Positions 5,632 through 63,676 of a stretch of DNA of 64,000 nucleotides are shown here, one piece after another; the stretch's first letter is position 1; every line of letters begins with the position of its first letter. The translations under genes were made by a program, and so were the position numbers. This DNA is from a virus. The stretch lies in IMG/VR virus record IMGVR_UViG_3300025875_000007, positions 1 to 64,000 of that record; one strand, 5' to 3'. The notes under the pieces were generated by a model. That model was not told the origin of the DNA. It was given only the letters and a program-made list of their open reading frames with translations, and did no database searches.

Positions 5632-5659
5632 TTCGCGTACAATACGTGGCCTATAATAG
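5632..5659 (+). promoter_or_regulatory. phage promoter-motif copy (TTCGCG-N14-TATAAT)
   Basis: TTCGCG at 5632-5637, a 14-nt spacer, TATAAT at 5652-5657. It lies upstream of the nuclease/RNAP gene string. Confidence 0.5.
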
Positions 5660-6059: not shown

Positions 6060-6558
6060 CTCTTGGGTAAATTACGACGACGAGAAGCTTGATCGTGTTT
6101 ATCTGAGTCGACAGGCTGCAAAGCGTGGTACGGACTTTCACGATCTCGCCCAGCGATGCATCACGCTCAACCAAAGACTTCCTGAGTTCCCAGTTACGAC
6201 TATGGGGCTCTATGTTAACGATGCCATCGGCTTTCGGATGAAGCCTGAGGTTACCCTCTTTTATTCGATTAACGCATTCTGTACAACAGATTGCATTTCG
6301 TTTCGAAAGAACATGCTCCGGATTCACGACCTGAAGATGGGGCTTGGGCACACCTCAGAGCGTCAGCTTGAAGTTTATGCGGCTTACTTCTGTCTCGAGT
6401 ACGGTGTTCGTCCATTCGACATCGAGACCGAACTTCGGATTTATCAGAACAACGAGGCACGGATCTATGAAGCCGATCCTGTGACCATCTCTCTCATTAT
6501 GCAAAAGATCGTTGCGTTCGACAGGCGTATCAATCAGCTTAGGGAGGACTCTGAGTGA
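5998..6558 (+). CDS. PD-(D/E)XK exonuclease (Cas4/RecB-like phage exonuclease)
   Basis: The N-terminal HSFLSASSSSW matches the S(A/P)SSxxRW-type opening of phage exonucleases. IHDLKMG is the D-x-K motif and QLEVYAAY the QhxxY motif. ATG 5998 is the only start upstream of the first motif, which gives a 62-nt overlap. Confidence 0.6.
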   Translation: MRFNDNSKLAGQHSFLSASSSSWVNYDDEKLDRVYLSRQAAKRGTDFHDLAQRCITLNQRLPEFPVTTMGLYVNDAIGFRMKPEVTLFYSINAFCTTDCISFRKNMLRIHDLKMGLGHTSERQLEVYAAYFCLEYGVRPFDIETELRIYQNNEARIYEADPVTISLIMQKIVAFDRRINQLREDSE

Positions 6559-14811: not shown

Positions 14812-14934
14812 ATGAGCGACAATGATCTTATTACACCAATTTATGATGAGCTCAATGAGGATAATCGAGCGGAGCCGCTTGACGCGGAGGTTCAGCATCT
14901 GGCAACCCCACAAGAGGTAGGTGACGAAGAATGA
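14812..14934 (+). CDS. small acidic protein (40 aa)
   Basis: AAAGGAGA RBS then ATG 14812. The upstream part of track ORF 14614.. is a frame shadow. Confidence 0.4.
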   Translation: MSDNDLITPIYDELNEDNRAEPLDAEVQHLATPQEVGDEE

Positions 14935-15833: not shown

Positions 15834-15855
15834 TTGTCAAAATGGGAGGTGACTC

Positions 15856-17771: not shown

Positions 17772-17810
17772 ACAGATCGACTCTAAGACTAGCAGAAAGG
17801 AAGGAGGGTT

Positions 17811-18353: not shown

Positions 18354-18362
18354 GAGGATCGC

Positions 18363-18827: not shown

Positions 18828-18841
18828 AGGGAGGGTTGGCG

Positions 18842-21144: not shown

Positions 21145-21147
21145 CGT

Positions 21148-36440: not shown

Positions 36441-36491
36441 ATTCAGAAGGAGGGTCTTCATATCTAAAAAGTGAAGACCCTCCTTCTGAAT
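36441..36491 (+). terminator. strong 20-bp hairpin (terminator candidate) inside the tail module
   Basis: ATTCAGAAGGAGGGTCTTCA (36441-36460) pairs perfectly with TGAAGACCCTCCTTCTGAAT (36472-36491) across an 11-nt loop, directly after the stop at 36437. Confidence 0.65.
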
Positions 36492-36543
36492 AATATTTAC
36501 TATGCCCATCACAACGTTCGGTAAAGTTTAGAGAGGTTCTATA

Positions 36544-41633: not shown

Positions 41634-41661
41634 GTCGCGATATTTACATCTCCTATAAAGG
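41634..41661 (+). promoter_or_regulatory. promoter-motif copy (GTCGCG-N14-TATAAA)
   Basis: TCGCG at 41635-41639, hexamer at 41654-41659, 29 nt before ATG 41688. Confidence 0.5.
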
Positions 41662-41687
41662 AAGCCCCCCTCTACGTTAGGAGAAAT

Positions 41688-41978
41688 ATGTTCAGCAAGA
41701 AGCCTTGCCCTGAAGAGACGGAGCTTAACACCGAGATCACTCGCGTGCTTGCCGTGCTTGCACGATGTGAGCCCGATTCCGACGAGTACACCAGCGCAGT
41801 CAAGAACCTCGCGACGCTGTACGCGCAGAAGGAGACCCTTCCTGTCACGCGCGTCAGCCCCGACACGTTCTGGACCGTCGTTGCCAACCTCGCCGGACTC
41901 GCTCTCGTCACGCAGTACGAGCGCGCGAACGTCCTCGGTGGTTACGCCATCAAGCTCGTCAGGCAGCTGAAGAACTGA
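41688..41978 (+). CDS. hypothetical protein (96 aa)
   Basis: Track ORF with an AGGAGA RBS. High GC3. Confidence 0.7.
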   Translation: MFSKKPCPEETELNTEITRVLAVLARCEPDSDEYTSAVKNLATLYAQKETLPVTRVSPDTFWTVVANLAGLALVTQYERANVLGGYAIKLVRQLKN

Positions 41979-42007
41979 GCAGTCCCCGCTAGACCCTTCC
42001 GAAGTCG

Positions 42008-42052
42008 GAGGGCACGCGAACCTTAAACAAGTTTGCGTGCCCTCTGATTTTC
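42008..42052 (+). terminator. intrinsic terminator
   Basis: GAGGGCACGC (42008-42017) pairs with GCGTGCCCTC (42035-42044), followed by TGATTTT. Confidence 0.7.
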
Positions 42053-42080
42053 GGTTGAATTACATATCCTCTAATTTTTG

Positions 42081-42108
42081 GTCGCGTGATATTCATCGCC
42101 TATAATGA
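42081..42108 (+). promoter_or_regulatory. promoter-motif copy
   Basis: GTCGCG-N14-TATAAT(42101-42106)-GA. Confidence 0.55.
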
Positions 42109-42137
42109 CCCGACTCCACCAATTCTAAGGAGATCCG

Positions 42138-42371
42138 ATGCACCCGACCCTCAAGGTTCTGGTGGCCATCTTCGTCACCACTCTTGCCAACCACAAGTTC
42201 TACCAGTACAAGCTTTCCATGCTCGACGACCTGCACCGCCAGGCCTCGATCAAGGAGTGCATGGAAGGGTGGACGCGCGGCTTCAAGGATGGTGAGCTGG
42301 AAGGCCGCCGGGCCATGTGGCTCGAACACCTGACCGATCCCAAGGCACCCTGGTACAAGTCCGAGTCCTAA
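42138..42371 (+). CDS. small protein (77 aa), N-terminal TM
   Basis: AAGGAGA RBS and its own motif promoter. Confidence 0.7.
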   Translation: MHPTLKVLVAIFVTTLANHKFYQYKLSMLDDLHRQASIKECMEGWTRGFKDGELEGRRAMWLEHLTDPKAPWYKSES

Positions 42372-42375
42372 GGCC

Positions 42376-42403
42376 GGAGCCCCTCACAAGGGCTCTAGTC
42401 TTT
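42376..42403 (+). terminator. conserved hairpin + TAGTCTTT module
   Basis: GAGCCC/GGGCTC stem, then TAGTCTTT at 42396-42403. Confidence 0.5.
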
Positions 42404-42429
42404 CGCGAGATATTCACGCCCTATAATGA
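42402..42429 (+). promoter_or_regulatory. promoter-motif copy
   Basis: TTCGCG-N14-TATAAT(42422-42427)-GA. Confidence 0.55.
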
Positions 42430-42454
42430 CCAGCCCTCAACCTCAGGAGTTCGC

Positions 42455-42565
42455 ATGAAGCTCAAGACCGTCCTCGTCAACCTCGGCGCCTTCGCCACCG
42501 TGTTCATCGCGGCCACCAAGGCGCTCGAGTACTTCGACAAGAAGAACAAGCTCCGCAACAACTGA
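42455..42565 (+). CDS. 36-aa membrane peptide
   Basis: CAGGAG RBS. MKLKTVLVNLGAFATVFIAATKALEYFDKKNKLRNN. It shares the stop of track ORF 42317..42565. Confidence 0.55.
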   Translation: MKLKTVLVNLGAFATVFIAATKALEYFDKKNKLRNN

Positions 42566-42585
42566 CCCGAGATCCGAGACCTCTG

Positions 42586-42616
42586 AAGTCTATGTAACCC
42601 ATAGGCTTTACGTCTT
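42586..42616 (+). terminator. conserved hairpin module
   Basis: AAGTCTATG/CATAGGCTT 9-bp stem, then TACGTCTT. Confidence 0.5.
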
Positions 42617-42642
42617 CGCGGATATTACACGGACTATAACGA
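42615..42642 (+). promoter_or_regulatory. promoter-motif copy
   Basis: TTCGCG-N14-TATAAC(42635-42640)-GA. Confidence 0.5.
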
Positions 42643-42668
42643 CCCCGCTCACAACATCAGGAGTAGAC

Positions 42669-42821
42669 ATGTTCGACCTGTCGCACCCCAAGTCCGTGAC
42701 CCTCATCGTGACGGTCAACCTCGACCCCGTTCCGGGTACCTTCCACACCCAGGAGAGTGCTCAGGAGGGCGTCCAGGCCATCCTCACCTCGATGATCCCG
42801 CACTACAAGCCCGACGTCTAG
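42669..42821 (+). CDS. 50-aa protein, hypothetical
   Basis: CAGGAG RBS then ATG 42669: MFDLSHPKSVTLIVTVNLDPVPGTFHTQESAQEGVQAILTSMIPHYKPDV. It is below the track cutoff. Confidence 0.5.
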   Translation: MFDLSHPKSVTLIVTVNLDPVPGTFHTQESAQEGVQAILTSMIPHYKPDV

Positions 42822-42854
42822 ATCCACCCGATGCACGCGTAGTCACAGACCTCT

Positions 42855-42879
42855 GAAGCCCTCATGGGTTTTAAGTCTT
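42855..42879 (+). terminator. weak hairpin + TAAGTCTT module
   Basis: GAAGCCC/GGGTTTT pair with wobbles, then AAGTCTT. Confidence 0.35.
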
Positions 42880-42880
42880 A

Positions 42881-42908
42881 TTCGCGAGAAAAACAAGCCC
42901 TATAATGA
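42881..42908 (+). promoter_or_regulatory. promoter-motif copy
   Basis: TTCGCG-N14-TATAAT(42901-42906)-GA. Confidence 0.55.
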
Positions 42909-42939
42909 CCCAACCACTACAACTGTTAGGAGCCCCACC

Positions 42940-43200
42940 GTGGACCTCAGCAGCAGCGTGATCATGCCTCGAGAAGACTTCATCGAGCTCACGACATGCG
43001 CCTTCAACCAGCCCCCCACGTCGCCCGCCGAGCGCGTCGCCGTCACCCTGCAGACCACCATCATCTTCGCAGGGATCGCCGCCGCCTTCAGCGGTGCCAC
43101 GTACGTCTGGTACCGGCTCATGTCGAAGCTCGAGTCGGAGAAGACCGAGAACGAGATCACCGTCATCGACGCCCGCGCCAACAGCTACAAGCAGCAGTAG
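42940..43200 (+). CDS. small membrane protein (86 aa)
   Basis: GTG after TAGGAG. TM VAVTLQTTIIFAGIAAAFSGATYVWY. Confidence 0.65.
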   Translation: MDLSSSVIMPREDFIELTTCAFNQPPTSPAERVAVTLQTTIIFAGIAAAFSGATYVWYRLMSKLESEKTENEITVIDARANSYKQQ

Positions 43201-43215
43201 ATCAGTCAAGACCCC

Positions 43216-43249
43216 GAGTCTATGCCCACCAGCATAGGCTCTAGGTCTT
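43216..43249 (+). terminator. conserved hairpin + TAGGTCTT module (repeat family copy A)
   Basis: GAGTCTATGC/GCATAGGCTC 10-bp stem. Confidence 0.55.
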
Positions 43250-43266
43250 CAAAATAGGAGTGTTTT

Positions 43267-43440
43267 ATGGCTGCATCCTTCGTCGATCCTAAACTTGATG
43301 AGTTCATAAAGTTCTTAGAAAGCCTTTCGGAAATTCCCCTGTCTCCTTGGCAAAAAGAGCTTGCAAAGGTGGTTTTAAGCGGTAAGAAGTTCCGCATCGT
43401 CCAAGGTCGCAAGGGATCGTACATCGTGACAGACGCGTAA
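43267..43440 (+). CDS. 57-aa protein, hypothetical (AT-richer insert, no motif promoter)
   Basis: TAGGAG RBS. MAASFVDPKLDEFIKFLESLSEIPLSPWQKELAKVVLSGKKFRIVQGRKGSYIVTDA. Confidence 0.45.
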   Translation: MAASFVDPKLDEFIKFLESLSEIPLSPWQKELAKVVLSGKKFRIVQGRKGSYIVTDA

Positions 43441-43459
43441 CTTTCACGCCCTATAGTGA
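43432..43459 (+). promoter_or_regulatory. promoter-motif copy (ACGCG variant)
   Basis: ACGCG(43433-43437)-N14-TATAGT(43452-43457)-GA. Confidence 0.45.
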
Positions 43460-43494
43460 AAGACCCATCGCCATCCCGACAGAAAGAAGTCGTC

Positions 43495-43719
43495 ATGACC
43501 ATGTTCGCCAAGCTCATCACCGAAGCCACCATCGAGGAGATCACCGAGACCAACGACGGTGTGCGCCCCGCCGACGAGACCCTGAACAACAACACGTTCT
43601 ACGTCTACCCGGACGCGCACACCGACGCCCACGCGGAGATCCTCACCCGAGCCGCCTTCGGCAAGAAGTACGCCTGGCACGACGTCAACTCGACCGACAA
43701 CATCGTCGTCCCGCGCTAG
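43495..43719 (+). CDS. small acidic protein (74 aa)
   Basis: ATG 43495 within track ORF 43456... AGAAAGAAG lies upstream. Confidence 0.6.
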   Translation: MTMFAKLITEATIEEITETNDGVRPADETLNNNTFYVYPDAHTDAHAEILTRAAFGKKYAWHDVNSTDNIVVPR

Positions 43720-43732
43720 TCCTTCACCAAGG

Positions 43733-43760
43733 CTAGGCCCCCTCCAGGGGCTTTAGTCTT
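43733..43760 (+). terminator. conserved hairpin + TTAGTCTTT (part of an exact 48-nt repeat)
   Basis: GCCCC/GGGGC stem. Positions 43721-43768 are identical to 44038-44085. Confidence 0.5.
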
Positions 43761-43762
43761 TG

Positions 43763-43790
43763 CTCGCGCAAAAGACATGGACCCTAATGA
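43763..43790 (+). promoter_or_regulatory. promoter-motif copy (degenerate hexamer CCTAAT)
   Basis: CTCGCG-N14-CCTAAT-GA. Confidence 0.4.
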
Positions 43791-43815
43791 AGGACCCCGA
43801 CCCAGAAGGAGAGAC

Positions 43816-44034
43816 ATGTCCAAGCAATTCAAGCGTTCCGACGCCTGCACCAAGCTCATCGAGTCCATCTACATGATCAGCTCCGGACCAGACATCACGC
43901 CCCCAGACCTCAACCGAGGCTTCCTGGAGGCGCTGACCTGCTTCGCCGCGACCATGAGTGGCCACACGAGCGTCATCGCAGGCACCGACAGCGACGGAGA
44001 AGTCGAAGACTTCATGTTCATCTTCCGCAACTAG
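43816..44034 (+). CDS. small protein (72 aa)
   Basis: GAAGGAGAGA RBS then ATG 43816 within track ORF 43777... Confidence 0.6.
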   Translation: MSKQFKRSDACTKLIESIYMISSGPDITPPDLNRGFLEALTCFAATMSGHTSVIAGTDSDGEVEDFMFIFRN

Positions 44035-44049
44035 CACCCTTCACCAAGG

Positions 44050-44077
44050 CTAGGCCCCCTCCAGGGGCTTTAGTCTT
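44050..44077 (+). terminator. conserved hairpin + TTAGTCTTT (second copy of the 48-nt repeat)
   Basis: Identical to the copy at 43733-43760. Confidence 0.5.
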
Positions 44078-44079
44078 TG

Positions 44080-44107
44080 CTCGCGTTATATTCATCTCCT
44101 ATAGTGA
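44080..44107 (+). promoter_or_regulatory. promoter-motif copy
   Basis: CTCGCG-N14-TATAGT(44100-44105)-GA. Confidence 0.55.
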
Positions 44108-44135
44108 AGACCCCCTACCCCATCAAGGAGATCCC

Positions 44136-44372
44136 ATGCACGGACCCTACGGCTTCGAGAAGACCACCCGCACGGTGGCCGACCTCCAGGAGGACGACCG
44201 ATTTTACATCGGTGGACTCATGTACAAGGTCCTCGGCGACCCGCTCACCAATTCGGTGAACGGCGAAGTCCAGGTCCGCATGTACCCCGTGTTCGTCGAC
44301 TTCCTCCCGGACATCACCGTCATGACCCTTCCCGGCCGGAACCCGATCGAGATCCACAACCAGCCCGCGTAG
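44136..44372 (+). CDS. small protein (78 aa)
   Basis: AAGGAGA RBS. Track ORF. Confidence 0.7.
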   Translation: MHGPYGFEKTTRTVADLQEDDRFYIGGLMYKVLGDPLTNSVNGEVQVRMYPVFVDFLPDITVMTLPGRNPIEIHNQPA

Positions 44373-44384
44373 ACCCTTCGAAGG

Positions 44385-44417
44385 CTAGAGCCCCCATCAC
44401 CATGGGCTTTAGTCTTT
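44385..44417 (+). terminator. conserved hairpin + TTAGTCTTT module
   Basis: AGCCC...GGGCT stem, then TTAGTCTTT ending at 44417. Confidence 0.45.
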
Positions 44418-44456
44418 GCAAATCTAAAAAATTCCCGGGGGAGGTTTTCAGTCAAA

Positions 44457-44484
44457 GTCGCGTAAAAAACACGCACTATAATGA
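44457..44484 (+). promoter_or_regulatory. promoter-motif copy
   Basis: GTCGCG-N14-TATAAT(44477-44482)-GA. Confidence 0.55.
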
Positions 44485-44511
44485 CCCGACCCATCTGATT
44501 GGAGAGCCCCC

Positions 44512-44730
44512 ATGCTCAACAAGCTCAAGAAGTCCAACCGGTACCAGTACACCTGTCCCGACGTCATCCACTACCGCAAGAACCAGTACCGGCTCGCGAT
44601 CTACTCCAACGTGTTCGCAGTCGCTACCCAGGTCCTCTTCTGGGGTGGCCTCGTCGCGATGAGCAAGCGCCTGGACCCGAAGCCGACCCTCAAGCCCGTG
44701 GAGCCCCTCAGCCCCTCCGACGCCAGCTAG
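44512..44730 (+). CDS. small membrane protein (72 aa)
   Basis: GGAGAG RBS. TM IYSNVFAVATQVLFWGGLVAM. Confidence 0.7.
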   Translation: MLNKLKKSNRYQYTCPDVIHYRKNQYRLAIYSNVFAVATQVLFWGGLVAMSKRLDPKPTLKPVEPLSPSDAS

Positions 44731-44745
44731 TCCCGTCAAGACCCC

Positions 44746-44779
44746 GAGTCTATGCCCACAAGCATAGGCTCTAGGTCTT
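44746..44779 (+). terminator. conserved hairpin + TAGGTCTT (repeat family copy B)
   Basis: The 35-nt core 44745-44779 is identical to 45953-45987 and differs by 1 nt from 43215-43249. Confidence 0.55.
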
Positions 44780-44787
44780 ACTGAAAT

Positions 44788-44815
44788 ATCGCGACATATA
44801 CATATCCTATAGTGA
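44788..44815 (+). promoter_or_regulatory. promoter-motif copy
   Basis: ATCGCG-N14-TATAGT(44808-44813)-GA. Confidence 0.55.
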
Positions 44816-44843
44816 ACGTCCATCTCTCACGAAGGAGTTTTAT

Positions 44844-44948
44844 ATGCCACGACTCATTCAGTACGTCCTCTGGACTTGGTTCTCGTGCATCCTCATGTAC
44901 GGCGGAACCATCCTGTTCGTCTTTGCGCTCGTCAGCATCATGACCTAG
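44844..44948 (+). CDS. 34-aa membrane peptide
   Basis: GAAGGAG RBS. MPRLIQYVLWTWFSCILMYGGTILFVFALVSIMT. Confidence 0.5.
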   Translation: MPRLIQYVLWTWFSCILMYGGTILFVFALVSIMT

Positions 44949-44974
44949 CTTCTACAGATCTAGTTCAAGGCTAC

Positions 44975-44998
44975 AGCCCTACACGGGCTTTAGTCTTT
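44975..44998 (+). terminator. conserved hairpin + TTAGTCTTT module
   Basis: AGCCC-TACAC-GGGCT, then TTAGTCTTT. Confidence 0.45.
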
Positions 44999-45003
44999 CG
45001 CAA

Positions 45004-45076
45004 GGGCCTATAGCTCAATTGGCAGAGCAGCGGACTTTTAATCCGCGGGTTCAGGGTTCGAGTCCCTGTGGGCCCA
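45004..45076 (+). tRNA. tRNA-Lys (anticodon UUU)
   Basis: Cloverleaf folded by hand. Acceptor GGGCCTA/TGGGCCC, D-arm AGCTCAATTGGCAGAGC, anticodon arm GCGGA-CTTTTAA-TCCGC, T-arm CAGGG-TTCGAGT-CCCTG. Confidence 0.85.
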
Positions 45077-45144
45077 CTCGCAAGGGGAGTCGTCACTAAG
45101 ATTTACCAACATGCAGTCCCCCATGATATTCTGCATGTTGGCTG

Positions 45145-45217
45145 GTCCTCATCGTCCAGTGGCCTAGGACTCCACCCTTTCAAGGTGGCTACGCGGGTTC
45201 GAATCCCGTTGAGGGCA
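45145..45217 (+). tRNA. tRNA-Glu (anticodon UUC)
   Basis: Acceptor GTCCTCA/TGAGGGC, D-arm GTCC-AGTGGCCTA-GGAC, anticodon arm CCACC-CTTTCAA-GGTGG, T-arm GCGGG-TTCGAAT-CCCGT. Confidence 0.85.
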
Positions 45218-45250
45218 CGATACATACCAACCAAAATAGGAGCGATAATT

Positions 45251-45445
45251 ATGGTTCAGATGGTTATTCAGAGGATTTCTGATAAGAAGTTTGCTTCGCT
45301 GCGCGGTTTCATGAACCACATAACGGACGCCGAATTCTTCGACGACGAAGTACATGCATTGGAAGTCATGCAAGACTACACGAAGAGCGGTACTCCATGC
45401 GAGTTGCTTTACGTCACAATCACCATGTCAAACGTAAAGGGCTAG
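45251..45445 (+). CDS. hypothetical protein (64 aa)
   Basis: TAGGAG RBS then ATG 45251. The upstream part of track ORF 45068.. overlaps both tRNAs and is rejected. Confidence 0.55.
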   Translation: MVQMVIQRISDKKFASLRGFMNHITDAEFFDDEVHALEVMQDYTKSGTPCELLYVTITMSNVKG

Positions 45446-45449
45446 TCTC

Positions 45450-45599
45450 ATGGAATCGGTTCAAATTGTAGTCACAAGACTAACGCCATCGCCAGGAGTA
45501 ACGCTTTACTCCATTCAAAACGCAGACGGTAAGGTGACGCAGGCGGAAGCGGTGGCTATACTTCGGGCAGCTGCTGATGATATGGAAAGTCGTAAATAG
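45450..45599 (+). CDS. hypothetical protein (49 aa)
   Basis: ATG 45450: MESVQIVVTRLTPSPGVTLYSIQNADGKVTQAEAVAILRAAADDMESRK. Confidence 0.4.
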   Translation: MESVQIVVTRLTPSPGVTLYSIQNADGKVTQAEAVAILRAAADDMESRK

Positions 45600-45604
45600 G
45601 ATCA

Positions 45605-45632
45605 CTCGCGAAAAAAACACGCCCTATAACGA
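45605..45632 (+). promoter_or_regulatory. promoter-motif copy
   Basis: CTCGCG-N14-TATAAC(45625-45630)-GA. Confidence 0.5.
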
Positions 45633-45661
45633 CCCTGTTCATCCGACAGATTGGAAATGTC

Positions 45662-45925
45662 ATGACCGACACCTCCGTCACCCCCACCACCGTCCCCACC
45701 GTCCCCCCGTCCCCGACGAGCGTCCCCGTGCCGCCCGCCGAGACCGAGACGGTCGCCAAGGTCGCCGGCGTCCTCGTGCGCGCGAAGGGTGGAGCCTCCA
45801 AGCTCCTCACCCGCTTCGCCGTGCCCGTCGCCACCGGTGCCCTGACCGGCCTCCTCGTCAACGCCAAGCGCAACCGCTCGGAGAACGAGGACGACGACGT
45901 GGTGGTCGACGAGTCGAACGACTAG
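45662..45925 (+). CDS. Pro/Thr-rich small protein (87 aa) with one hydrophobic segment
   Basis: Track ORF. High GC3. Confidence 0.65.
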   Translation: MTDTSVTPTTVPTVPPSPTSVPVPPAETETVAKVAGVLVRAKGGASKLLTRFAVPVATGALTGLLVNAKRNRSENEDDDVVVDESND

Positions 45926-45953
45926 TCCCATCCGCCTCAACAGATCAGGCCTC

Positions 45954-45988
45954 GAGTCTATGCCCACAAGCATAGGCTCTAGGTCTTT
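45954..45988 (+). terminator. conserved hairpin + TAGGTCTTT (repeat family copy C)
   Basis: GAGTCTATGC/GCATAGGCTC stem. Confidence 0.55.
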
Positions 45989-45991
45989 CTG

Positions 45992-46019
45992 TTCGCGATA
46001 TTTACATCGCCCATAGTGA
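45992..46019 (+). promoter_or_regulatory. promoter-motif copy
   Basis: TTCGCG-N14-CATAGT(46012-46017)-GA. Confidence 0.5.
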
Positions 46020-46140
46020 AGAAATATCCCTTACTATGGAGTGTAAGATGAGATCACTGTGTTATGTCAATAGCACCCCCGGAAGCCCTGACAAGCGGAC
46101 AAATTGTGAAACTTCTTTCCCTTTTATTTTTGGAGGAAAC

Positions 46141-46341
46141 ATGACACACGAGTATCGAGCGGCCGGAAGCATCGACCTCATGCCCCCCGCAACACTCGAA
46201 GATGTTGAAGCGTTCTGTAGAGAAGCTCGAAAGCTTGGTGTCTCTGAGAAGTCACCACTACACACAACCCGACAAGGACTAGTCGGTCCGATTGTAGGTT
46301 GGTATTTCTCAGTTCCTGTAGTACCGGCAGCTCCGCAGTAG
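46141..46341 (+). CDS. hypothetical protein (66 aa)
   Basis: TGGAGGAAAC RBS then ATG 46141. The upstream part of track ORF 46036.. is AT-rich and lacks an RBS. Confidence 0.55.
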   Translation: MTHEYRAAGSIDLMPPATLEDVEAFCREARKLGVSEKSPLHTTRQGLVGPIVGWYFSVPVVPAAPQ

Positions 46342-46369
46342 TTCGCGTAAAATACACATCCCATAGTAG
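46342..46369 (+). promoter_or_regulatory. promoter-motif copy
   Basis: TTCGCG-N14-CATAGT(46362-46367)-AG. Confidence 0.5.
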
Positions 46370-46493
46370 AGGAGTCCTGAAAAGGATCCGAGACACTAAT
46401 GTGTAGGTGAAAACCCTACCCGGAGTGGTAGCCATTAAAGATAAGGCTACTTAACGGACTGTTTTAGTTGGACAGTCACCTCCTCTATTTTTT
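46368..46493 (+). ncRNA. ~125-nt structured RNA / leader closed by a long-range stem and a U-run
   Basis: AGAGGAG (46368-46374) pairs with CTCCTCT (46480-46486), followed by ATTTTTT. Internal hairpins: GTAGCC/GGCTAC and GACTGT/ACAGTC. There is no credible ORF. Confidence 0.45.
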
Positions 46494-46515
46494 CGCCTCA
46501 ATTTAAGGGAGCTCG

Positions 46516-46719
46516 ATGGATGCACTTGCTCTAACAATCATGCAATTTTTGGACAGCGTCATTATCGTCGCTGTACTAGCGTTTGTTGTCTGGCTGGTTC
46601 TTAGCCTGACCCCGAAGCCTCGTCCCGTCTCGGGGCAAACATATCTCTACATCAAGCCGTCAGACGACGACTTCTTCGACATGATTACGGAGTTCCGCAA
46701 TGACATCCCTGGTAAGTAG
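46516..46719 (+). CDS. small membrane protein (67 aa)
   Basis: AAGGGAG RBS. TM VIIVAVLAFVVWLVLSL. Confidence 0.65.
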   Translation: MDALALTIMQFLDSVIIVAVLAFVVWLVLSLTPKPRPVSGQTYLYIKPSDDDFFDMITEFRNDIPGK

Positions 46720-47482
46720 GTTCAAGGCAATCGAGAAGCTGGCGATCGACAACTCGCCCGTTCTTCTGACCGCAATCGGTGTGGCCGGTGTCATCGGCAC
46801 TGCAATCCTGACCCACCGTGCGGCGCTCAAAACGCACCGCGTGCTCCTCGAGGTCGAGGACAACCAGCTCGCAAACAAGGAGCCATTCACGCCTCTGACT
46901 CCGAAGGAGAAGGTGAAGGCGACCTGGACGCACTACATCCCCCCGGTCGTCTCAGGCACAGCCACCATCACCGCCATCGTGCTGGCCAACCACATCAGTA
47001 CGAAGCGTGCGGCAGCCCTTGCTGTTGCGTGCACGATCTCGGAGAAGGCGTACACCGAGTACCGCGACAAGGTCGTAGAGCGATTCGGTGAAAAGGAAGA
47101 GAACCAGATCCGAAACGGTATCGCACAGGACCGGATCGATAAGGCGCCGCCCACCGAGGGCAACGTGCTCATGGTTTCTGGCGGTGATCACCTCTTCATG
47201 GAGATGTACACCGGCCGGTACTTCCGAAGCGATATCGAGACGATTCGTCGAGCCGAGAATCAGCTCAACCACAAGCTCAACACAAACGGCTACGCCACCG
47301 TGTCTGATTTCTATGACATGATCGGCCTTGCGCACACCGCCATCTCTGATGAGATTGGTTGGAACAGCGACAAGCTGATGGCTGTGGACTACCAGGCCAT
47401 CCTGAGCGAGGATGGTCAGCCGTGCGTTGCGATCAACTTCGTCACGGGTCCGGTCCGCGACTACACTCGGTTTCACGGCTAA
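46700..47482 (+). CDS. conserved phage protein with an N-terminal TM (paralog of 51245..52141)
   Basis: SPVLLTAIGVAGVIGTAILTHRAALKTH opening. C-terminal GYATVSDFYDMIGL...IGW pattern. Confidence 0.65.
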   Translation: MTSLVSRFKAIEKLAIDNSPVLLTAIGVAGVIGTAILTHRAALKTHRVLLEVEDNQLANKEPFTPLTPKEKVKATWTHYIPPVVSGTATITAIVLANHISTKRAAALAVACTISEKAYTEYRDKVVERFGEKEENQIRNGIAQDRIDKAPPTEGNVLMVSGGDHLFMEMYTGRYFRSDIETIRRAENQLNHKLNTNGYATVSDFYDMIGLAHTAISDEIGWNSDKLMAVDYQAILSEDGQPCVAINFVTGPVRDYTRFHG

Positions 47483-47534
47483 GGAACACTTCAAGCAGCT
47501 GCGCATATTCGAGCGAGGAAACGTAGTAGGCGAG

Positions 47535-47648
47535 ATGTGCGTTACTGAGGAGTGTCCTTCCTGCGGATCACGAGAGTCACGATACGCAGAGAACGATCTC
47601 ATGCAATGTGAGTACTGCCCGGCGATATTCCCGAAGCAGTTTCTGTAG
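47535..47648 (+). CDS. zinc-ribbon peptide (37 aa)
   Basis: MCVTEECPSCGSRESRYAENDLMQCEYCPAIFPKQFL has CxxC...CxxC. ATG 47535 within track ORF 47412... Confidence 0.45.
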   Translation: MCVTEECPSCGSRESRYAENDLMQCEYCPAIFPKQFL

Positions 47649-47735
47649 TACAAGGGGGTACGGCCTTAAGCGGCGTACTTAAACGACACTACTTTGTTGT
47701 GCGCCCCTCACAACCATCTCTTTAAGGAGACAAAT

Positions 47736-47924
47736 ATGCAGCCCAGCCTGTTCACCTACCAGACCTCGATCGACGAGCCGCCGCACCCCGACCCCAACGT
47801 TGTGGCACGCCTCGTGGAGGCGGAGCTGAGCGACTGCGAGTTCGGCTGCAAGATCTACCAGGACACCCGTAACTCGAACGTCCGTATCCTCGTCCACAGC
47901 GCGGTCTACGGCTGCCGCAAGTAG
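47736..47924 (+). CDS. small protein (62 aa), tandem paralog 1
   Basis: AAGGAGA RBS. LFTYQTSIDEPPHPDPNVVARLVEAELSDCEFGCKIYQD. Confidence 0.6.
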   Translation: MQPSLFTYQTSIDEPPHPDPNVVARLVEAELSDCEFGCKIYQDTRNSNVRILVHSAVYGCRK

Positions 47925-47934
47925 GAGTCTAATT

Positions 47935-48117
47935 ATGTCGGACAAGCTGTTTACGTACACGATCAGACAAGACCAGCTCGACAAGCACCCGGATCAGGCG
48001 GTTGTCAAGCGCTTGGTAGAAGCGTCTGCAAGTGACTGCACGGACGCCTGCAAGATCTACAAGGACCCTCAGACCACTTTGCGATTGCTGGTACACCGAT
48101 GCCCCCCAGCCGACTAA
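47935..48117 (+). CDS. small protein (60 aa), tandem paralog 2
   Basis: LFTYTIRQDQLDKHPDQAVVKRLVEASASDCTDACKIYKD aligns with the preceding gene. Confidence 0.6.
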   Translation: MSDKLFTYTIRQDQLDKHPDQAVVKRLVEASASDCTDACKIYKDPQTTLRLLVHRCPPAD

Positions 48118-48317
48118 CGCCCAGAAGCATTGCTGTAACATGCCGTAGATGCGGTAAATTCAAAAGGCGCGAGACAACAGTGCTCGATCGATACAATAAT
48201 CGATACTGCTTGGATTGCGCCATTGCCGTTGAACTGTGTGAGCTTTGCGGATCTACGAATCTCGACGACATATCCATGTACGGCCAACTCCACTACGACG
48301 ATTGGTGCTTAAAATAA
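48099..48317 (+). CDS. Cys-rich zinc-finger-like protein (72 aa)
   Basis: CRRCG...CLDC...CELCG give three CxxC pairs. Confidence 0.55.
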   Translation: MPPSRLTPRSIAVTCRRCGKFKRRETTVLDRYNNRYCLDCAIAVELCELCGSTNLDDISMYGQLHYDDWCLK

Positions 48318-48484
48318 TGCACAAGTTCATCAACGAGGTCCAGAAGGGCAACGTCATCATCGACGGCAGCAACCGTACTACGGTCTACAAGGTCGAGCCC
48401 TGCCCGTCTTCCAAGGGCACCAAGACTCACATCAACGGCAAGGACTGCTGGGAGAACTTCTCCGAAGTCCGAGTCCAGGACTAA
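48317..48484 (+). CDS. hypothetical protein (55 aa)
   Basis: The ATG overlaps the upstream TAA. It lies within track ORF 48245... Confidence 0.45.
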   Translation: MHKFINEVQKGNVIIDGSNRTTVYKVEPCPSSKGTKTHINGKDCWENFSEVRVQD

Positions 48485-48519
48485 TCCAGTTCCACATCCA
48501 AATTTTGAAGGAGCTAAAT

Positions 48520-48831
48520 ATGGCAACCAAAGAAGAAATCGACATCTTCACGCGAGTCAGCCAAAGGATCGAGCAGCAGGACGCTAGCCCCAGCGATTTT
48601 GCGAAGCGCGCCTATATTCGGGAGCTCAACGAGGGGCTCTACGAGATTGCTCTGTATGGACCGTTCTCGGATGAAGAGGTCGGCGGGCTCCTTAACGACG
48701 CCTTCGCTGACGCCATGGCGAGCGGAGGCGCAGACATCGAGGAAGTTCGTCTCACGGACGAAGACGCCTCCAAGCACTACATCAACCCACGCGAGTTCTG
48801 GATGAGACAGCTCGCAACACTTACGGAGTGA
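48520..48831 (+). CDS. hypothetical acidic protein (103 aa)
   Basis: GAAGGAG RBS then ATG 48520. Confidence 0.6.
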   Translation: MATKEEIDIFTRVSQRIEQQDASPSDFAKRAYIRELNEGLYEIALYGPFSDEEVGGLLNDAFADAMASGGADIEEVRLTDEDASKHYINPREFWMRQLATLTE

Positions 48832-48832
48832 A

Positions 48833-49438
48833 ATGATCACGAAGACCATCACGTTCGAGGACTTCAACGGTAAGACTCTTACCGAGGAGTTCTGCTTCCA
48901 CCTCTCTGAGGACAAGGTCATTGAGATGGAGCTGAGCAAGAAGGGCGGTCTTACTGAGTACATCAAGCGGATCGTTGCCGAGGAGGACGGTGAGAAGCTG
49001 GTTGCCATCTTCAAGGACCTCCTGACAAAGACCGTCGGTAAGAAGTCTCCGGATGGTCGTAAGTTCATCCAAAACCAGGAGATCACTGACGACTTCGTTC
49101 AGACCCCTGCATATTCCAAGCTCTTTGTTGAACTGTCTACGGATGCGGGCCAGGCTGCGGCATTCATCAACGGTGTTGTTCCCGCTTCGATGCAGGCGGA
49201 GATCAAGAAGAAGCAGCAGGCTGTTACTGATCTTCCGTCTGTCGAGGGTGCTGTTGCGCTCGCGCAGGATGCTCAGGCGTCTACCCCGCTCTCGCAGCAG
49301 GACGAGTTCGAGGAGAAGATGAAGGACCCGGATTGGGTTCCGACACAGAAGGACCTACAGAACATGTCTCCGGCACAGATCGCAGCCGCCTTCCAACGCA
49401 AGCAGGCTCAGACCGAGCGAGCTCAGAGCACTCCGTAG
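48833..49438 (+). CDS. conserved phage protein (201 aa), function unknown
   Basis: Track ORF, tightly coupled to the upstream gene. Confidence 0.65.
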   Translation: MITKTITFEDFNGKTLTEEFCFHLSEDKVIEMELSKKGGLTEYIKRIVAEEDGEKLVAIFKDLLTKTVGKKSPDGRKFIQNQEITDDFVQTPAYSKLFVELSTDAGQAAAFINGVVPASMQAEIKKKQQAVTDLPSVEGAVALAQDAQASTPLSQQDEFEEKMKDPDWVPTQKDLQNMSPAQIAAAFQRKQAQTERAQSTP

Positions 49439-49466
49439 TTCGCGTAAAATACACGGGCCATAGTGA
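49439..49466 (+). promoter_or_regulatory. promoter-motif copy
   Basis: TTCGCG-N14-CATAGT(49459-49464)-GA, starting 1 nt after the upstream stop. Confidence 0.5.
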
Positions 49467-49562
49467 GACCACTCAAAAGCCCGAAAGGGATTCATAGGAG
49501 CAATACCTCTAAAGCGCGAAAGCGAATCACAGGAGCAATACCTACGTGGTCTCTATTTTTTT
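49465..49562 (+). ncRNA. ~100-nt structured RNA with two 35-nt-period direct repeats, closed by an 8-bp stem + U7
   Basis: GAGACCAC (49465-49472) pairs with GTGGTCTC (49546-49553), then TATTTTTTT. Repeat units at 49476-49508 and 49511-49543 each hold a GAAA-tetraloop hairpin plus AGGAGCAATACCT. One base pair covaries between units (CCC/GGG vs CGC/GCG). Confidence 0.55.
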
Positions 49563-49598
49563 CGACCCCTCCCACACCCACTAGTTAGGAATCCAATT

Positions 49599-50782: not shown

Positions 50783-51258
50783 GCGGATGTTCTTGTGGCA
50801 CGCCTTATCAAGAAGGTATTCACGCATCGGATAAGTGCGTGTCCAGGCCCATGCGAGATAGGGGCTGGCTTCTCGTGGCGGAGGCAGTAGCCGCTAGAGC
50901 CGACTGTCGGAGACGACAGATCGGAGCAGTAATCGTAGATAAGCACGACCGCATTGTCAGCACCGGAAGAAATGGCTCACCTCCGGGTGGGCCTTCTTGT
51001 TTGCAGGGAGAGTGTCCTCGAGGGCTCTTAACCACTGACGAGCTTCCCCCTGACAGTTCGTATGACAGCGGTATCGGCAAGTGCGTGGCTGTTCACGCAG
51101 AGGCTAACGCCATGATATTTGGCGATCCCGCTAGAATGCGGGGCGGCACGATGTACATCAGCTGTCCCGTTCCACCATGCCCGGGCTGCCAGCGCTTGAT
51201 TGACGGCATGGGTCTCAAAGTCGTATTCAATTCCAAGGAGAACAATGAGCGTCGTTAG
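50779..51258 (+). CDS. dCMP deaminase (CMP/dCMP-type zinc deaminase)
   Basis: CVAVHAEANAM and PCPGCQRLI zinc-binding motifs. Confidence 0.85.
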   Translation: MSGCSCGTPYQEGIHASDKCVSRPMRDRGWLLVAEAVAARADCRRRQIGAVIVDKHDRIVSTGRNGSPPGGPSCLQGECPRGLLTTDELPPDSSYDSGIGKCVAVHAEANAMIFGDPARMRGGTMYISCPVPPCPGCQRLIDGMGLKVVFNSKENNERR

Positions 51259-63532: not shown

Positions 63533-63560
63533 TTCGCGAAAAAAACATGCGCTATGATGA
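63533..63560 (+). promoter_or_regulatory. promoter-motif copy
   Basis: TTCGCG-N14-TATGAT(63553-63558)-GA, starting 1 nt after the upstream stop. Confidence 0.5.
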
Positions 63561-63676
63561 GACCCCGTGTCGTCGCCGCCCAAATGTAAATTCAGGTGGA
63601 CATCCGATGGCACGGGGTCTCATCCAAGCCTTATGTTGCTTTCCGTTGATTAATTTCCGGACGAGACATAGGCTTT
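63559..63676 (+). ncRNA. structured 5' leader (two long hairpins) upstream of 63720
   Basis: The 11-bp stem GAGACCCCGTG (63559-63569) / CACGGGGTCTC (63611-63621) begins right after the hexamer. A second hairpin, GCCT(T)ATG...CATAGGC, lies at ~63626-63676. Confidence 0.4.

Follow-up and report, generated by a model that had tools for sequence, protein, structure and literature searches.

The 64,000-nucleotide stretch of viral DNA analysed here (the window) contains 16 near-identical copies of a signal of about 30 bases, TCGCG-N14-TATART-GA. These copies are probably the cognate promoters of gp6555, a polymerase homologue encoded by the phage itself, with an HTH module of the protein reading the TCGCR element. 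No description of the motif was found in the searchable literature, and it appears to be undescribed so far.

The motif and its distribution

All 16 copies that an earlier note had listed by eye were present, and all are on the + strand (Table 1). The spacer was exactly 14 nt long at 16 of 16 sites, as had been claimed. Within it, a CA was invariant among the window sites and the last base was always C. TCGCG was found in 15 of the 16, the exception being site 43432 with ACGCG, and GA followed the hexamer in 13, in agreement with the earlier count. The strict pattern TCGCG-N14-YATARW gave 11 matches, compared with 0.18 expected from 100 dinucleotide shuffles. With a 45-nt position-weight matrix (PWM), which is circular because it was built from the 16 sites themselves, the sites scored 32.4-47.0 bits. 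The gap to the remaining sequence was very large: the best score outside the motif copies was 8.2 bits on the + strand and 8.0 bits on the - strand.

The PWM scan found no site inside genes or within the 32-kb virion block, and the claim that the virion and lysis genes at 9.6-41.6 kb are free of copies was confirmed. The sites precede early and replication genes of this phage and often lie directly 3' of terminator hairpins, and some stand before tRNAs or non-coding RNAs. The placement in intergenic gaps described previously needs one correction: several copies directly adjoin the stop codon of the preceding gene or share a few bases with it. At 11 copies the distance from the motif end to a start codon with a Shine-Dalgarno sequence was 27-33 nt. 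Longer leaders were observed at 5632 (60 nt), 46342 (148 nt), 49439 (134 nt) and 63533 (161 nt), and for site 43432 the start-codon scan called none downstream. Site 45992, formerly placed about 120 nt from the ATG at 46141, lies instead 30 nt from the ATG at 46048, which is accompanied by GGAG. The copy at 5632 was found ahead of the nuclease and RNAP genes, as proposed. The late block begins right after the polymerase gene, without a motif copy. A palindrome-rich region is located at 9584-9900.

Table 1. Promoter-like copies, downstream RNAs and gp6555 features in the window
Feature	Coordinates	Strand	Sequence or property	Next start codon	Context
Variant promoter-like copy	5632..5659	+	TTCGCG-N14-TATAAT-AG		Upstream of VRR-Nuc endonuclease/Cas4-like exonuclease/RNAP string; short 5'-terminal hairpin and U-run next
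gp6555	6555..9287	+	910 aa; phrog_4291, E = 0		Proposed motif reader
N-terminal HTH region	6687..6899	+	aa 45-115; Pfam HTH_23 and related families		gp6555
Catalytic-loop motif ADFDGD	8133..8150	+	aa 527-532; invariant in 30 and in 8 aligned homologues		gp6555
C-terminal HTH module	9078..9278	+	aa 842-908; Pfam HTH_38, HTH_24		gp6555
Promoter-like copy	41634..41661	+	GTCGCG-N14-TATAAA-GG	ATG 41688 (28 nt)	Begins directly 3' of the stop codon of the last tail-region ORF
Promoter-like copy	42081..42108	+		ATG 42138 (31 nt)	
Promoter-like copy	42402..42429	+		ATG 42455 (27 nt)	Upstream hairpin, then CTCTAGTCT
Promoter-like copy	42615..42642	+	Hexamer TATAAC	ATG 42669 (28 nt)	
Promoter-like copy	42881..42908	+		GTG 42940 (33 nt)	Upstream terminator-like hairpin 42854-42873
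Promoter-like copy	43432..43459	+	GACGCG, hexamer TATAGT		Overlaps stop codon of upstream ORF
Promoter-like copy	43763..43790	+	Hexamer CCTAAT	ATG 43816 (27 nt)	Upstream terminator-like hairpin 43735-43753
Promoter-like copy	44080..44107	+		ATG 44136 (30 nt)	Upstream terminator-like hairpin 44052-44070
Promoter-like copy	44457..44484	+		ATG 44512 (29 nt)	
Promoter-like copy	44788..44815	+		ATG 44844 (34-aa ORF; 30 nt)	Downstream hairpin, then tRNA-Lys and tRNA-Glu
Promoter-like copy	45605..45632	+	Hexamer TATAAC	ATG 45662 (31 nt)	
Promoter-like copy	45992..46019	+	Hexamer CATAGT	ATG 46048 (30 nt)	
Promoter-like copy	46342..46369	+	CATAGT-AG		Ahead of ~130-nt structured RNA
Structured RNA	46365..46495	+	z = -2.9; closing stem AGUAGAGGAG / CUCCUCUAUU		
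Promoter-like copy	49439..49466	+	CATAGT-GA		Ahead of ~100-nt leader RNA and replication gene block
Leader RNA	49465..49566	+	Closing stem GAGACCAC / GUGGUCUC, then UAUUUUUUU		
Promoter-like copy	63533..63560	+	Hexamer TATGAT		
Very stable 5' stem-loop	63556..63625	+	~20 contiguous pairs; z = -6.1		From hexamer position 4

The polymerase homologue and its relatives

gp6555 is a single-polypeptide two-barrel RNA polymerase homologue of the '1706 family' of YonO-like proteins. The family comprises 250 phage records and at least 8000 homologues, and its RNA polymerase activity is predicted (preprint 10.1101/842583). When an AF2 model of gp6555 (pLDDT 78) was searched with Foldseek, the best matches were QDE-1 (E = 1e-8) and RDR2, followed by the largest subunits of Pol I, II and IV and bacterial beta'. 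The sequence GADFDGD was invariant across the aligned homologues, and so was the recognition helix ESSVR of the N-terminal HTH. In homologues, the N-terminal HTH matched Sigma70_r4, r4_2 and GerE, and the C-terminal HTH matched Sigma70_r4_2 with up to 40 bits. No other candidate reader, either a sigma factor or an HTH regulator, was detected by Pfam among the 30 window ORFs tested. The polymerase alignment showed no clear covariation of the HTH recognition helices with the TCGCG, TCGCA and yCACA versions of the motif.

The window is a member of the actinophage/Lactococcus-1706 supercluster, the hallmark of which is the gp6555 protein of about 900 aa with HTH at both ends. Seven relatives carry yCGCR-N14-TATART-RR in 4-14 copies each, on the + strand only and preceding non-structural genes. 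Their polymerases are 41-73% identical to the window protein in the alignment (73% in the ENA relative) and their G+C content ranges from 33 to 61%. Their hosts span two phyla and include Arthrobacter, Rhodococcus, Gordonia, Streptomyces and Lactococcus; the seven also comprise one saliva phage and one contig from a metagenome. The TCGCG type was found in Circum (45% G+C) and the TCGCA type in ReqiPoco6 and Chikenjars. Lactococcus phage 1706 (33% G+C) has yCACA/TCGCA-N14-TATAGT-AGA. Bilo and the saliva phage D_HF5_2C have 61% and 37% G+C, respectively. Circum, Poco6, Bilo and the saliva phage likewise have a variant copy before the nuclease/RNAP string; in 1706 and DJ such a copy lies within the same right-hand block of genes.

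When 50,697 phage records were searched with a 45-nt consensus, matches were obtained at 822 places in 124 records, from phages of Gordonia (55), Streptomyces (49), Arthrobacter (15), Rhodococcus (4) and Microbacterium (1). All five genera are among the polymerase carriers, and no other genera were matched. The motif was present in every polymerase-carrying relative examined and is therefore most likely that polymerase's own promoter; the co-occurrence is confounded by shared ancestry, and the motif could equally be read by another protein that the whole supercluster has kept.

Proposed start site and proposed enzyme for the motif

The position of the start site was approached through the RNAs that follow some copies. 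In the structured RNA at 46365 the closing stem starts at hexamer position 4 and a U-run stands at the end; comparable units, with the closing stem at the 5' end and a U-run, are found in the saliva phage (L006 39663) and in 1706 (L002 36458). The closing stem of the leader RNA at 49465 starts from the first base 3' of the hexamer. Stem-loops with the same 5' edge as that at 63556 follow the TATGAT/TATGGT variants in ReqiPoco6 (L003 41140) and Chikenjars (L004 34091). The 78 sites of the window and the seven relatives (8 genomes) were selected by PWM, so that their statistics are partly circular. Among them, the 5' edge of a long RNA stem falls on hexamer position 4 in five cases and on the first base after the hexamer in three, with a background of about 0.3 per position. 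The window supplies three of these cases. Because stems at positions 4-7 need those bases in the RNA, the start site would lie inside the hexamer. This implies that transcription may begin, as it does in T7, within the "TATA" box instead of 6-8 nt downstream.

The earlier note had offered two readings, of which the dedicated promoter class for the phage RNAP is favoured by the polymerase fold, the conserved 30-nt architecture, the co-occurrence and the stem-edge start. The motif class would then be read by gp6555 and not by the host sigma-A holoenzyme. If +1 is taken as the purine at hexamer position 5, the upstream part would consist of yCGCR at -23 to -19, an A/T-rich stretch at -18 to -13 and ACA at -12 to -10 with an invariant C. 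The core would have C at -5 and TATA at -4 to -1, and the start region a purine at +1, T at +2 and purines at +3 and +4. One built-in HTH of gp6555, resembling sigma region 4 or the LuxR type, may dock on yCGCR, and the catalytic core would recognise and melt the ACA...C-TATA segment. As at T7-type promoters, the first RNA base would fall within the 'hexamer' or at its end. The small genes that follow the tail genes would each form a separate terminator-promoter-gene unit. One copy each would stand before the replication block (49439) and before a later block (63533), and the variant copy at 5632 would head the nuclease-RNAP string, with the virion and lysis genes devoid of a copy.

The polymerase gene would thus stand behind its own promoter type, so that the first enzyme molecules would have to come from elsewhere. 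They are probably delivered by the virion, since the polymerase homologue of 1706, orf75, is annotated as a 'structural protein'; alternatively, low-level host transcription from the TATAAT-like box could prime the system. This layout requires one of the two as an extra assumption, and the evidence for it is a single GenBank annotation in one distant relative.

The second reading of the earlier note, 'extended -10' host promoters with a phage-specific upstream operator, was analysed for sigma-70 features. A sigma-70 scan recovered 0 of the 16 window sites, the -35 hexamer was absent from all 16, and in all 8 genomes the best -35 match at 16-18 nt spacing equalled that of random controls. The TGn element occurred in none of the window sites and in 1 of the 78 overall; therefore, the 'extended -10' label does not apply. 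Conservation was strongest at positions that sigma-70 does not read: spacer base 8 is C in 78/78 sites, and the base 5' of the hexamer is C in 65/78. Purines occupy hexamer position 5 and the two positions that follow the hexamer in 78/78. The hexamer is TATAAT in 45 of the 78, with A2 in 76 and T6 in 74; at 3 of the 16 window sites the position 6 consensus is lost. G at position 5 was found in 11 of 12 sites in 1706 and in 4 of 4 in the relative L126.

The 14-nt spacer had also been used as an argument against a canonical promoter. TCGCG indeed cannot be a -35 element, but host RNAP survives this argument, because many actinobacterial sigma-A promoters function with the -10 element alone, often without a -35. 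Since, in addition, the hexamer consensus, TATAAT, is also that of the sigma-A -10 element, host RNAP could use the sites.

Host sigma-A '-10 only' promoters might accordingly drive early and middle genes, the polymerase gene among them, with yCGCR...ACA as an operator or activator site of a phage protein, possibly of the gp6555 HTH modules acting as a shut-off or switch factor. We consider this unlikely. It would explain expression of the polymerase gene behind a motif copy without an extra assumption, and the phage polymerase would then transcribe the motif-free late block from another promoter near 9.6-10 kb, which the palindrome-rich region could hold. YonO of SPbeta, the only characterised YonO-like enzyme, transcribes a single long late operon that has one promoter (PMC5467207); by analogy, the enzyme here would be expected to act on the late genes that directly follow its own gene. 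Several observations argue against host use. The 30-nt architecture is kept in the Lactococcus and saliva phages without -35 or TGn, elements that are normally needed in hosts of these types. Three features are foreign to sigma-70 promoters: the invariant spacer C, the C at -13 and the run of purines that follows hexamer position 4. G at position 5 is nearly fixed in 1706 and fixed in L126. Stems from hexamer positions 4-7 are impossible with a start 6-8 nt downstream, and in the DJ, CC and BI phages C is the only base that an invariant GAGACCCC offers where a sigma-type start would be expected. Moreover, an early host promoter needs no phage-encoded upstream reader at injection.

It is less probable still that two enzymes share the sites, the host sigma-A holoenzyme firing weakly at TATAAT right after injection to make the first polymerase molecules and the phage enzyme then taking over via the upstream element. 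This would account for the perfect -10-like box with phage-specific flanks and would solve the bootstrap without virion delivery. However, it demands different start bases for each enzyme, which the sequence does not require, very little host initiation is expected in Lactococcus-type hosts without -35 or TGn, and the annotation of the 1706 homologue already offers a bootstrap.

It is very improbable that the motif has a non-promoter role, whether as a 'stoperator' for a repressor, as a signal for replication or packaging, or as a 'start-associated sequence' linked to translation. Actinophages do carry oriented intergenic repeats and the conserved block continues into the ribosome-binding site in the DJ, CC and BI phages, but every copy is followed by a gene or a structured RNA, the distance to start codons is fixed at 27-33 nt, terminator hairpins often directly precede the copies, and none lies inside genes or in the virion block. 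The element is not tied to translation, because some copies precede tRNAs or non-coding RNAs; Pfam detected no repressor or other HTH regulator among the 30 window ORFs tested, and the characterised relatives are lytic.

Comparison with known systems

The Thermus siphovirus P23-45 has a virion (gp96) and a non-virion (gp64) two-barrel RNAP, each with its own conserved promoter motif (PMC10770324). It is a precedent for a siphovirus with a sigma-independent enzyme of this fold, as proposed here. Its motifs are likewise strongly conserved, present in many copies upstream of non-structural genes and restricted to relatives encoding the enzyme, and one of its two enzymes is delivered by the virion (PMC10770324). 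In contrast, its RNAPs belong to another family, and gp6555 has no TMP fusion and carries HTH modules at both ends. The P23-45 motifs are described only as AT-rich and GC-rich, not as bipartite yCGCR-N14-TATART, and were mapped by ONT-cappable-seq and ChIP-seq (PMC10770324).

Promoters of the T7/SP6 type also form a single contiguous conserved block of about 25-30 bp and occur in many copies, on one strand and all intergenic. They share an A/T-rich upstream part, specificity bases at about -12 to -10, TATA at -4 to -1 and a purine start, as numbered here on the proposed +1. The initial transcribed bases are conserved and some transcripts have 5'-terminal stem-loops. The 1706 version of the motif contains ACACTATAG, as does the SP6 promoter. 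The enzymes are unrelated, gp6555 having a two-barrel fold and not that of a Pol-A-family single-subunit RNAP, and the window motif reaches -23 with a separate CG-rich module. The resemblance would at best be convergent.

YonO is, like gp6555, a single-polypeptide two-barrel RNAP of a siphovirus-type phage (PMC5467207), and both fall into the same broad 'YonO-like' grouping (PMC2919709). It differs in having one promoter of undefined sequence for its long late operon (PMC5467207), and the yonN-yonK interval of SPbeta contained no motif-like sequence.

T4 middle promoters combine a sigma-70 -10 with a MotA box at -30 and are used with AsiA; the window motif similarly has a -10-like hexamer and a phage element centred near -29, too close for a -35. 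The box sequence differs, none of the window ORFs tested was recognisable as a homologue of MotA or AsiA, and the conserved spacer, the downstream bases and the proposed start do not fit sigma appropriation. Oriented intergenic repeats of actinobacteriophages include the cluster A stoperators and the cluster K SAS/ESAS. These short elements are 13-14-bp repressor sites or lie adjacent to the RBS and are scattered through the genome, whereas the window motif is about 30 bp long, has a TATA box and precedes genes and RNAs at a fixed distance.

Copies of the motif in the window and in related phages

All 16 copies of the motif that the earlier note had picked out by eye (TCGCG-N14-TATART-GA, each copy named by its start coordinate) were present at their coordinates on the + strand. 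The pattern TCGCG-N14-YATARW matched 11 times, where dinucleotide-preserving shuffles gave an expectation of 0.18. A 45-nt position weight matrix (PWM) made from the 16 sites themselves scored these at 32-47 bits, and the next best places in the 64 kb reached 8.2 bits on the + strand and 8.0 bits on the − strand. With the same matrix the region from 9.6 to 41.6 kb contained no copy, as had been claimed. The spacer between the 5-mer and the hexamer was 14 nt long and ended in C in 16/16 copies, and GA followed the hexamer in 13, again in agreement with the note.

A start codon with a Shine-Dalgarno sequence was found 27-33 nt past the end of 11 of the 16 copies, and longer leaders follow copies 5632, 46342, 49439 and 63533. 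Copy 45992, described as lying about 120 nt from an ATG at 46141, is in fact 30 nt from an ATG at 46048. The ORF start scan called no start codon downstream of copy 43432. Five copies are immediately preceded by a stop codon and several by terminator-like hairpins ending in TTTAGTCTTT. The + strand also carries all three tRNA genes and every window ORF with a detected family match.

The hairpin tail TTTAGTCTTT is conserved and unusual, and stands in place of a plain T-run; its counterpart in Arthrobacter phage Circum is a hairpin followed by TA(G)GTTTTTG. Possibly these hairpins are terminators of a type suited to the phage polymerase. An exact repeat of 48 nt was also seen in this part of the window.

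Coordinates of features in the window and in related phages
Feature	Genome	Position	Detail
Terminator-like hairpin	window	42854-42880	tail TTTAGTCTTT
Terminator-like hairpin	window	43735-43762	tail TTTAGTCTTT
Terminator-like hairpin	window	44052-44079	tail TTTAGTCTTT
Terminator-like hairpin	window	44393-44415	tail TTTAGTCTTT
Terminator-like hairpin	window	44975-45000	tail TTTAGTCTTT
48-nt exact repeat	window	segments starting 43721 and 44038
~130-nt RNA, stem and U-run unit	window	46365-46495	closing stem AGUAGAGGAG / CUCCUCUAUU + U-run
Leader RNA	window	49465-49566	closing stem GAGACCAC / GUGGUCUC + U-run
Stem-loop behind TATGAT/TATGGT	window	63556-63625	~20 contiguous pairs, z = -6.1
Stem-loop behind TATGAT/TATGGT	ReqiPoco6	~41160
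Stem-loop behind TATGAT/TATGGT	Chikenjars	~34110
Stem and U-run unit	window	5655-5700
Stem and U-run unit	Lactococcus 1706	~36477-36560
Stem and U-run unit	saliva phage D_HF5_2C	~39682-39730
Copy next to tRNA gene	ReqiPoco6	12669-12775
Copy next to tRNA-like sequence	Chikenjars	12505-12600
448-nt non-coding stretch	Lactococcus 1706	41635-42082	direct repeats of CTATCACGAAAAAACTTCGGGAAAACTTCGGGATT
Cellular-looking genes	ENA relative	13509-22682	PhoU_div, PHO4, TadE, VanY/SLT, MaoC, enoyl-CoA hydratase
tRNA-Lys	window	45004
DUF6353 paralogue (phrog_2152)	window	46700-47482	early small-gene region
DUF6353 paralogue (phrog_2152)	window	51200-52141	replication block
Palindrome-rich region	window	9584-9900
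Terminator-like hairpin	window	9866-9880	inside palindrome-rich region

No near-identical phage was found in INPHARED, where similarity to the window was limited to tRNAs and terminase. The architecture of the motif was found in 7/7 relatives examined, on the + strand only and always before non-structural genes. A variant copy precedes the nuclease-polymerase string in Circum, ReqiPoco6, Bilo and the saliva phage, and lies within the same right-hand gene block in 1706 and Chikenjars.

Motif copies in seven relatives
Phage	G+C	Copies	Consensus
Arthrobacter Circum	45%	9 + 1 weak PWM hit	TCGCGTAAATTACAnGSSSTATAAT
Rhodococcus ReqiPoco6	53%	14	TCGCAnAAAAAACACrCCCTATAATGAGACCC
Gordonia Chikenjars	51%	8 + 1 weak PWM hit	ReqiPoco6-type
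Streptomyces Bilo	61%	6	ReqiPoco6-type
Saliva phage D_HF5_2C	37%	9	TCGCAGAAATTACAnnnCCTATAATGAA
Lactococcus 1706	33%	12	yCACA/TCGCA-TGTTTTACATAYAC-TATAGT-AGAAAG
ENA relative, 73% polymerase identity		4	TCGCG-N14-TATAGT-GA

When 78 sites from 8 genomes were pooled, spacer base 8 was C, hexamer position 3 was T, position 5 was a purine (A 54, G 24) and both bases after the hexamer were purines in 78/78, counts that are partly circular because the sites had been chosen by PWM. The 5-mer consensus was yCGCR. When 50,697 phage records were queried with a 45-nt consensus, 822 places in 124 records matched (Gordonia 55, Streptomyces 49, Arthrobacter 15, Rhodococcus 4, Microbacterium 1); each of these genera is a polymerase-carrying one, a co-occurrence confounded by shared ancestry. 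A degenerate-motif scan of viral_contigs gave at least 118 loci. Since single hits were at about chance level by a rough estimate, only loci with multiple hits are informative, for example L024 and L031 with 9 hits each, and the scan was kept out of the statistics.

The polymerase homologue gp6555

The window protein gp6555 (910 aa, 6555-9287) matched phrog_4291, 'RNA-dependent RNA polymerase', from end to end (E = 0). With tblastn, homologues were found in 250 phage records, whose hosts or sources include Arthrobacter, Gordonia, Streptomyces, Rhodococcus, Curtobacterium, Microbacterium, Lactococcus and human-associated samples, and a large protein collection contained at least 8000. Among YonO-like proteins this is the '1706 family' (PMC2919709). 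Its polymerase is the signature gene of an actinophage/Lactococcus/Faecalibacterium supercluster, for which the DxDGD motif and terminal helix-turn-helix (HTH) modules were reported in a preprint that holds no promoter analysis (10.1101/842583).

The DxDGD catalytic loop, GADFDGD at aa 526-532, was invariant in alignments of 30 and of 8 homologues. The AlphaFold2 model (pLDDT 77.9) gave QDE-1 (E = 1.2e-8) and RDR2 as its top Foldseek matches, followed by the largest subunits of Pol I, II and IV and bacterial beta'. By this predicted fold and the GADFDGD motif, gp6555 is a two-barrel RNAP homologue. The polymerase core was seen only by the fold search, since a sequence-profile search against the PDB gave matches at the level of the HTHs only; Pfam RdRP matched weakly in homologues. 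The HTH modules of gp6555 span aa 45-115 and 842-908, and those of its homologues pass the Pfam thresholds for Sigma70_r4, r4_2 and generic HTH families. The window, Circum, ReqiPoco6, Chikenjars and Bilo have a common gene order of nuclease, exonuclease, polymerase, small gene, and lysis and virion genes.

Predicted start site and RNA structures behind the copies

A sigma-70 scan detected 0/16 window sites. At 16-18 nt the best match to a TTGACA-like −35 hexamer averaged 2.1-2.9 of 6, equal to random controls in 8/8 genomes. This agrees with the view of the earlier note that a 14-nt spacer is too short for TCGCG to act as a −35 element, and such a role was ruled out. The extended −10 promoter that the note had also considered was rejected as well, with TGn in only 1/78 sites. 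A −10 hexamer of the form TAnnnT is present (TATAAT 45/78, TATAGT 19/78, A2 76/78, T6 74/78), T6 being absent in 3 of the 16 window sites, and C directly precedes the hexamer in 65/78. Conservation of the spacer C, of C at −13 and of purines both at position 5 and just past the hexamer is unlike that of a sigma-70 site.

Of the long predicted RNA stems, five began on the 5' side at hexamer position 4 and three at the base right behind the hexamer, against a background of about 0.3 per position; three of these eight lie in the window. To form such stems, which begin at hexamer positions 4-7, the transcript would have to contain the end of the hexamer. A predicted start inside the hexamer would fit this, as in T7-like promoters, where TATA occupies −4 to −1 and +1 is a purine, and the stems point indirectly against a sigma start 6-8 nt downstream. 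The T7-like layout matches if +1 is hexamer position 5, the predicted start. In Rfam only the three tRNAs were above threshold, and no family was found for the RNAs behind copies 46342, 49439 and 63533.

A unit of promoter, closing stem and U-run recurs in the window, 1706 and the saliva phage. Its transcript is predicted to begin with AGAGGAG, AGAGAGG or AGAAG, which pairs with CUCCUCU-like bases directly ahead of the U-run, and the unit is predicted to be a short RNA or attenuator right behind the promoter. In the window and the saliva phage it stands ahead of the polymerase-containing gene block; it had no Rfam family match. Hexamer variants TATGAT/TATGGT were followed by a contiguous 5' stem-loop of 19-21 bp, starting from the hexamer G, in the window, ReqiPoco6 and Chikenjars. 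Their presence in three distant phages suggests a conserved stable 5' structure or regulatory RNA. In ReqiPoco6, 8 nt separate the end of one promoter copy from an annotated tRNA gene downstream, and in Chikenjars a putative tRNA-like sequence lies a few nt past a copy; a sigma-type start at these two copies would leave almost no leader.

Which enzyme reads the motif

The motif is retained across hosts of two phyla and from 33 to 61% G+C, and the protein common to the phages that bear it is the HTH-flanked polymerase. No sigma factor or other HTH regulator was found with Pfam among 30 window ORFs tested. The conservation across two phyla, the shared polymerase, the lack of another candidate reader among these ORFs, the pattern unlike that of sigma-70 and the RNA stems together favour the proposal of the earlier note that the copies are dedicated promoters of the phage polymerase, and on this sequence evidence they probably are its cognate promoters. 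For the further part of that proposal, we infer that yCGCR is read by an HTH module; the recognition helices of 8 polymerases from few lineages did not covary clearly with the 5-mer (TCGCG, TCGCA, yCACA).

The motif resembles the promoters of two-barrel RNAPs (P23-45, phiKZ, AR9) in that the window phage encodes a two-barrel homologue with a DxDGD loop and in that motif and enzyme co-occur in 7/7 relatives, which is confounded by shared ancestry. Unlike the Pol-A enzyme of a T7-like promoter, gp6555 has a predicted two-barrel fold, and a T7-type RNAP (Pfam RNA_pol, PF00940) was not found among the 30 window ORFs scanned. The element yCGCR is also unlike the MotA box of T4 middle promoters, (a/t)(a/t)(a/t)TGCTTtA; MotA and AsiA had no match among the window ORFs tested, which cover the small ORFs in part. 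Cluster A stoperators are 13-14-bp sites bound by the immunity repressor and found throughout the genome including late regions, whereas the window motif is a block of about 30 nt at a fixed distance to start codons and does not occur in the 32-kb virion block. In the yonN-yonK region of SPbeta, which holds the mapped YonO start site, no sequence similar to the motif was found.

A broader reading, which we regard as possible and put forward tentatively, is that the motif alone would make up the whole promoter of a single-polypeptide two-barrel RNAP of the cellular lineage that works without sigma, and that with small changes this promoter would serve in phages of both Actinobacteria and Firmicutes. 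The terminal HTH modules fused to the enzyme would be a built-in counterpart of sigma region 4 and locate the duplex promoters, and transcription would start within the TATA box. The polymerase gene itself lies behind copy 5632, so that the cognate-promoter reading as such already calls for another source of the first enzyme molecules. In the broader reading the siphovirus virion would carry the polymerase into the cell, so that the non-structural genes could run without host RNAP. Virion delivery in the 1706/gp6555 family is plausible by analogy, since orf75, the homologue in 1706, carries the annotation 'structural protein' and siphovirus P23-45 delivers a two-barrel RNAP with its virion (PMC10770324).

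The main rival reading, which is less likely, is that host sigma-A uses the TATAAT box, the upstream part being a phage operator, and that the late block, which has no copy, is left to the phage polymerase. Promoters with only a −10 element are common in Actinobacteria. For the late block there is the analogy to YonO, which transcribes from a single late promoter (PMC5467207). The RNA stems point indirectly against the downstream start of a sigma promoter. Use of the motif by both host and phage enzymes is improbable, and a non-promoter repeat very improbable; both rank below the cognate-promoter and sigma-A readings.

Promoters specific for phage polymerases are already known as a kind of element, for T7-type enzymes, N4, the multisubunit enzymes of phiKZ and AR9, and P23-45. 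To our knowledge, no promoter has been defined for the single-polypeptide two-barrel polymerases of the YonO-like/1706 family. For these the promoter, its bipartite form suggesting reading by enzyme-borne HTHs and its conservation across phyla appear to be new. No description of the motif was found in the searchable literature, also by exact motif strings; earlier papers on 1706 or ReqiPepy6/Poco6 might mention it. If the broader, tentative reading is true, the family would thereby have its first defined promoter, and Gram-positive hosts possibly a T7-like pair of enzyme and promoter. The conserved 30-nt motif makes promoter finding by an enzyme free of sigma a concrete and cheaply testable hypothesis, with a bearing on promoter recognition in minimal relatives of cellular RNAP, and culturable phages are available for Arthrobacter, Gordonia, Streptomyces, Rhodococcus and Lactococcus. 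Confirmation would improve the annotation of hundreds of SEA-PHAGES genomes, whose polymerase mostly bears the label 'helix-turn-helix DNA-binding protein', and would delimit the transcription units in arrays of small membrane-protein genes. Gram-positive bacteria might also gain an orthogonal expression system.

Several minor features were observed. The CTATCACGAAAAAACTTCGGGAAAACTTCGGGATT repeats lie upstream of orf75, the polymerase gene of 1706, and may be an origin or binding array. The cellular-looking genes downstream of the polymerase in the ENA relative may have an auxiliary role, mark a prophage junction or stem from a chimeric assembly. In the window, tRNA-Lys is preceded by a hairpin and has no motif copy of its own, and two DUF6353 paralogues occur. 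No wrap-around duplication was found within the 64 kb. The palindrome-rich region after the polymerase string contains several long inverted repeats and a G-run/C-run hairpin; its position matches the genome ends in relatives, so it possibly holds cos/packaging signals or a late promoter.
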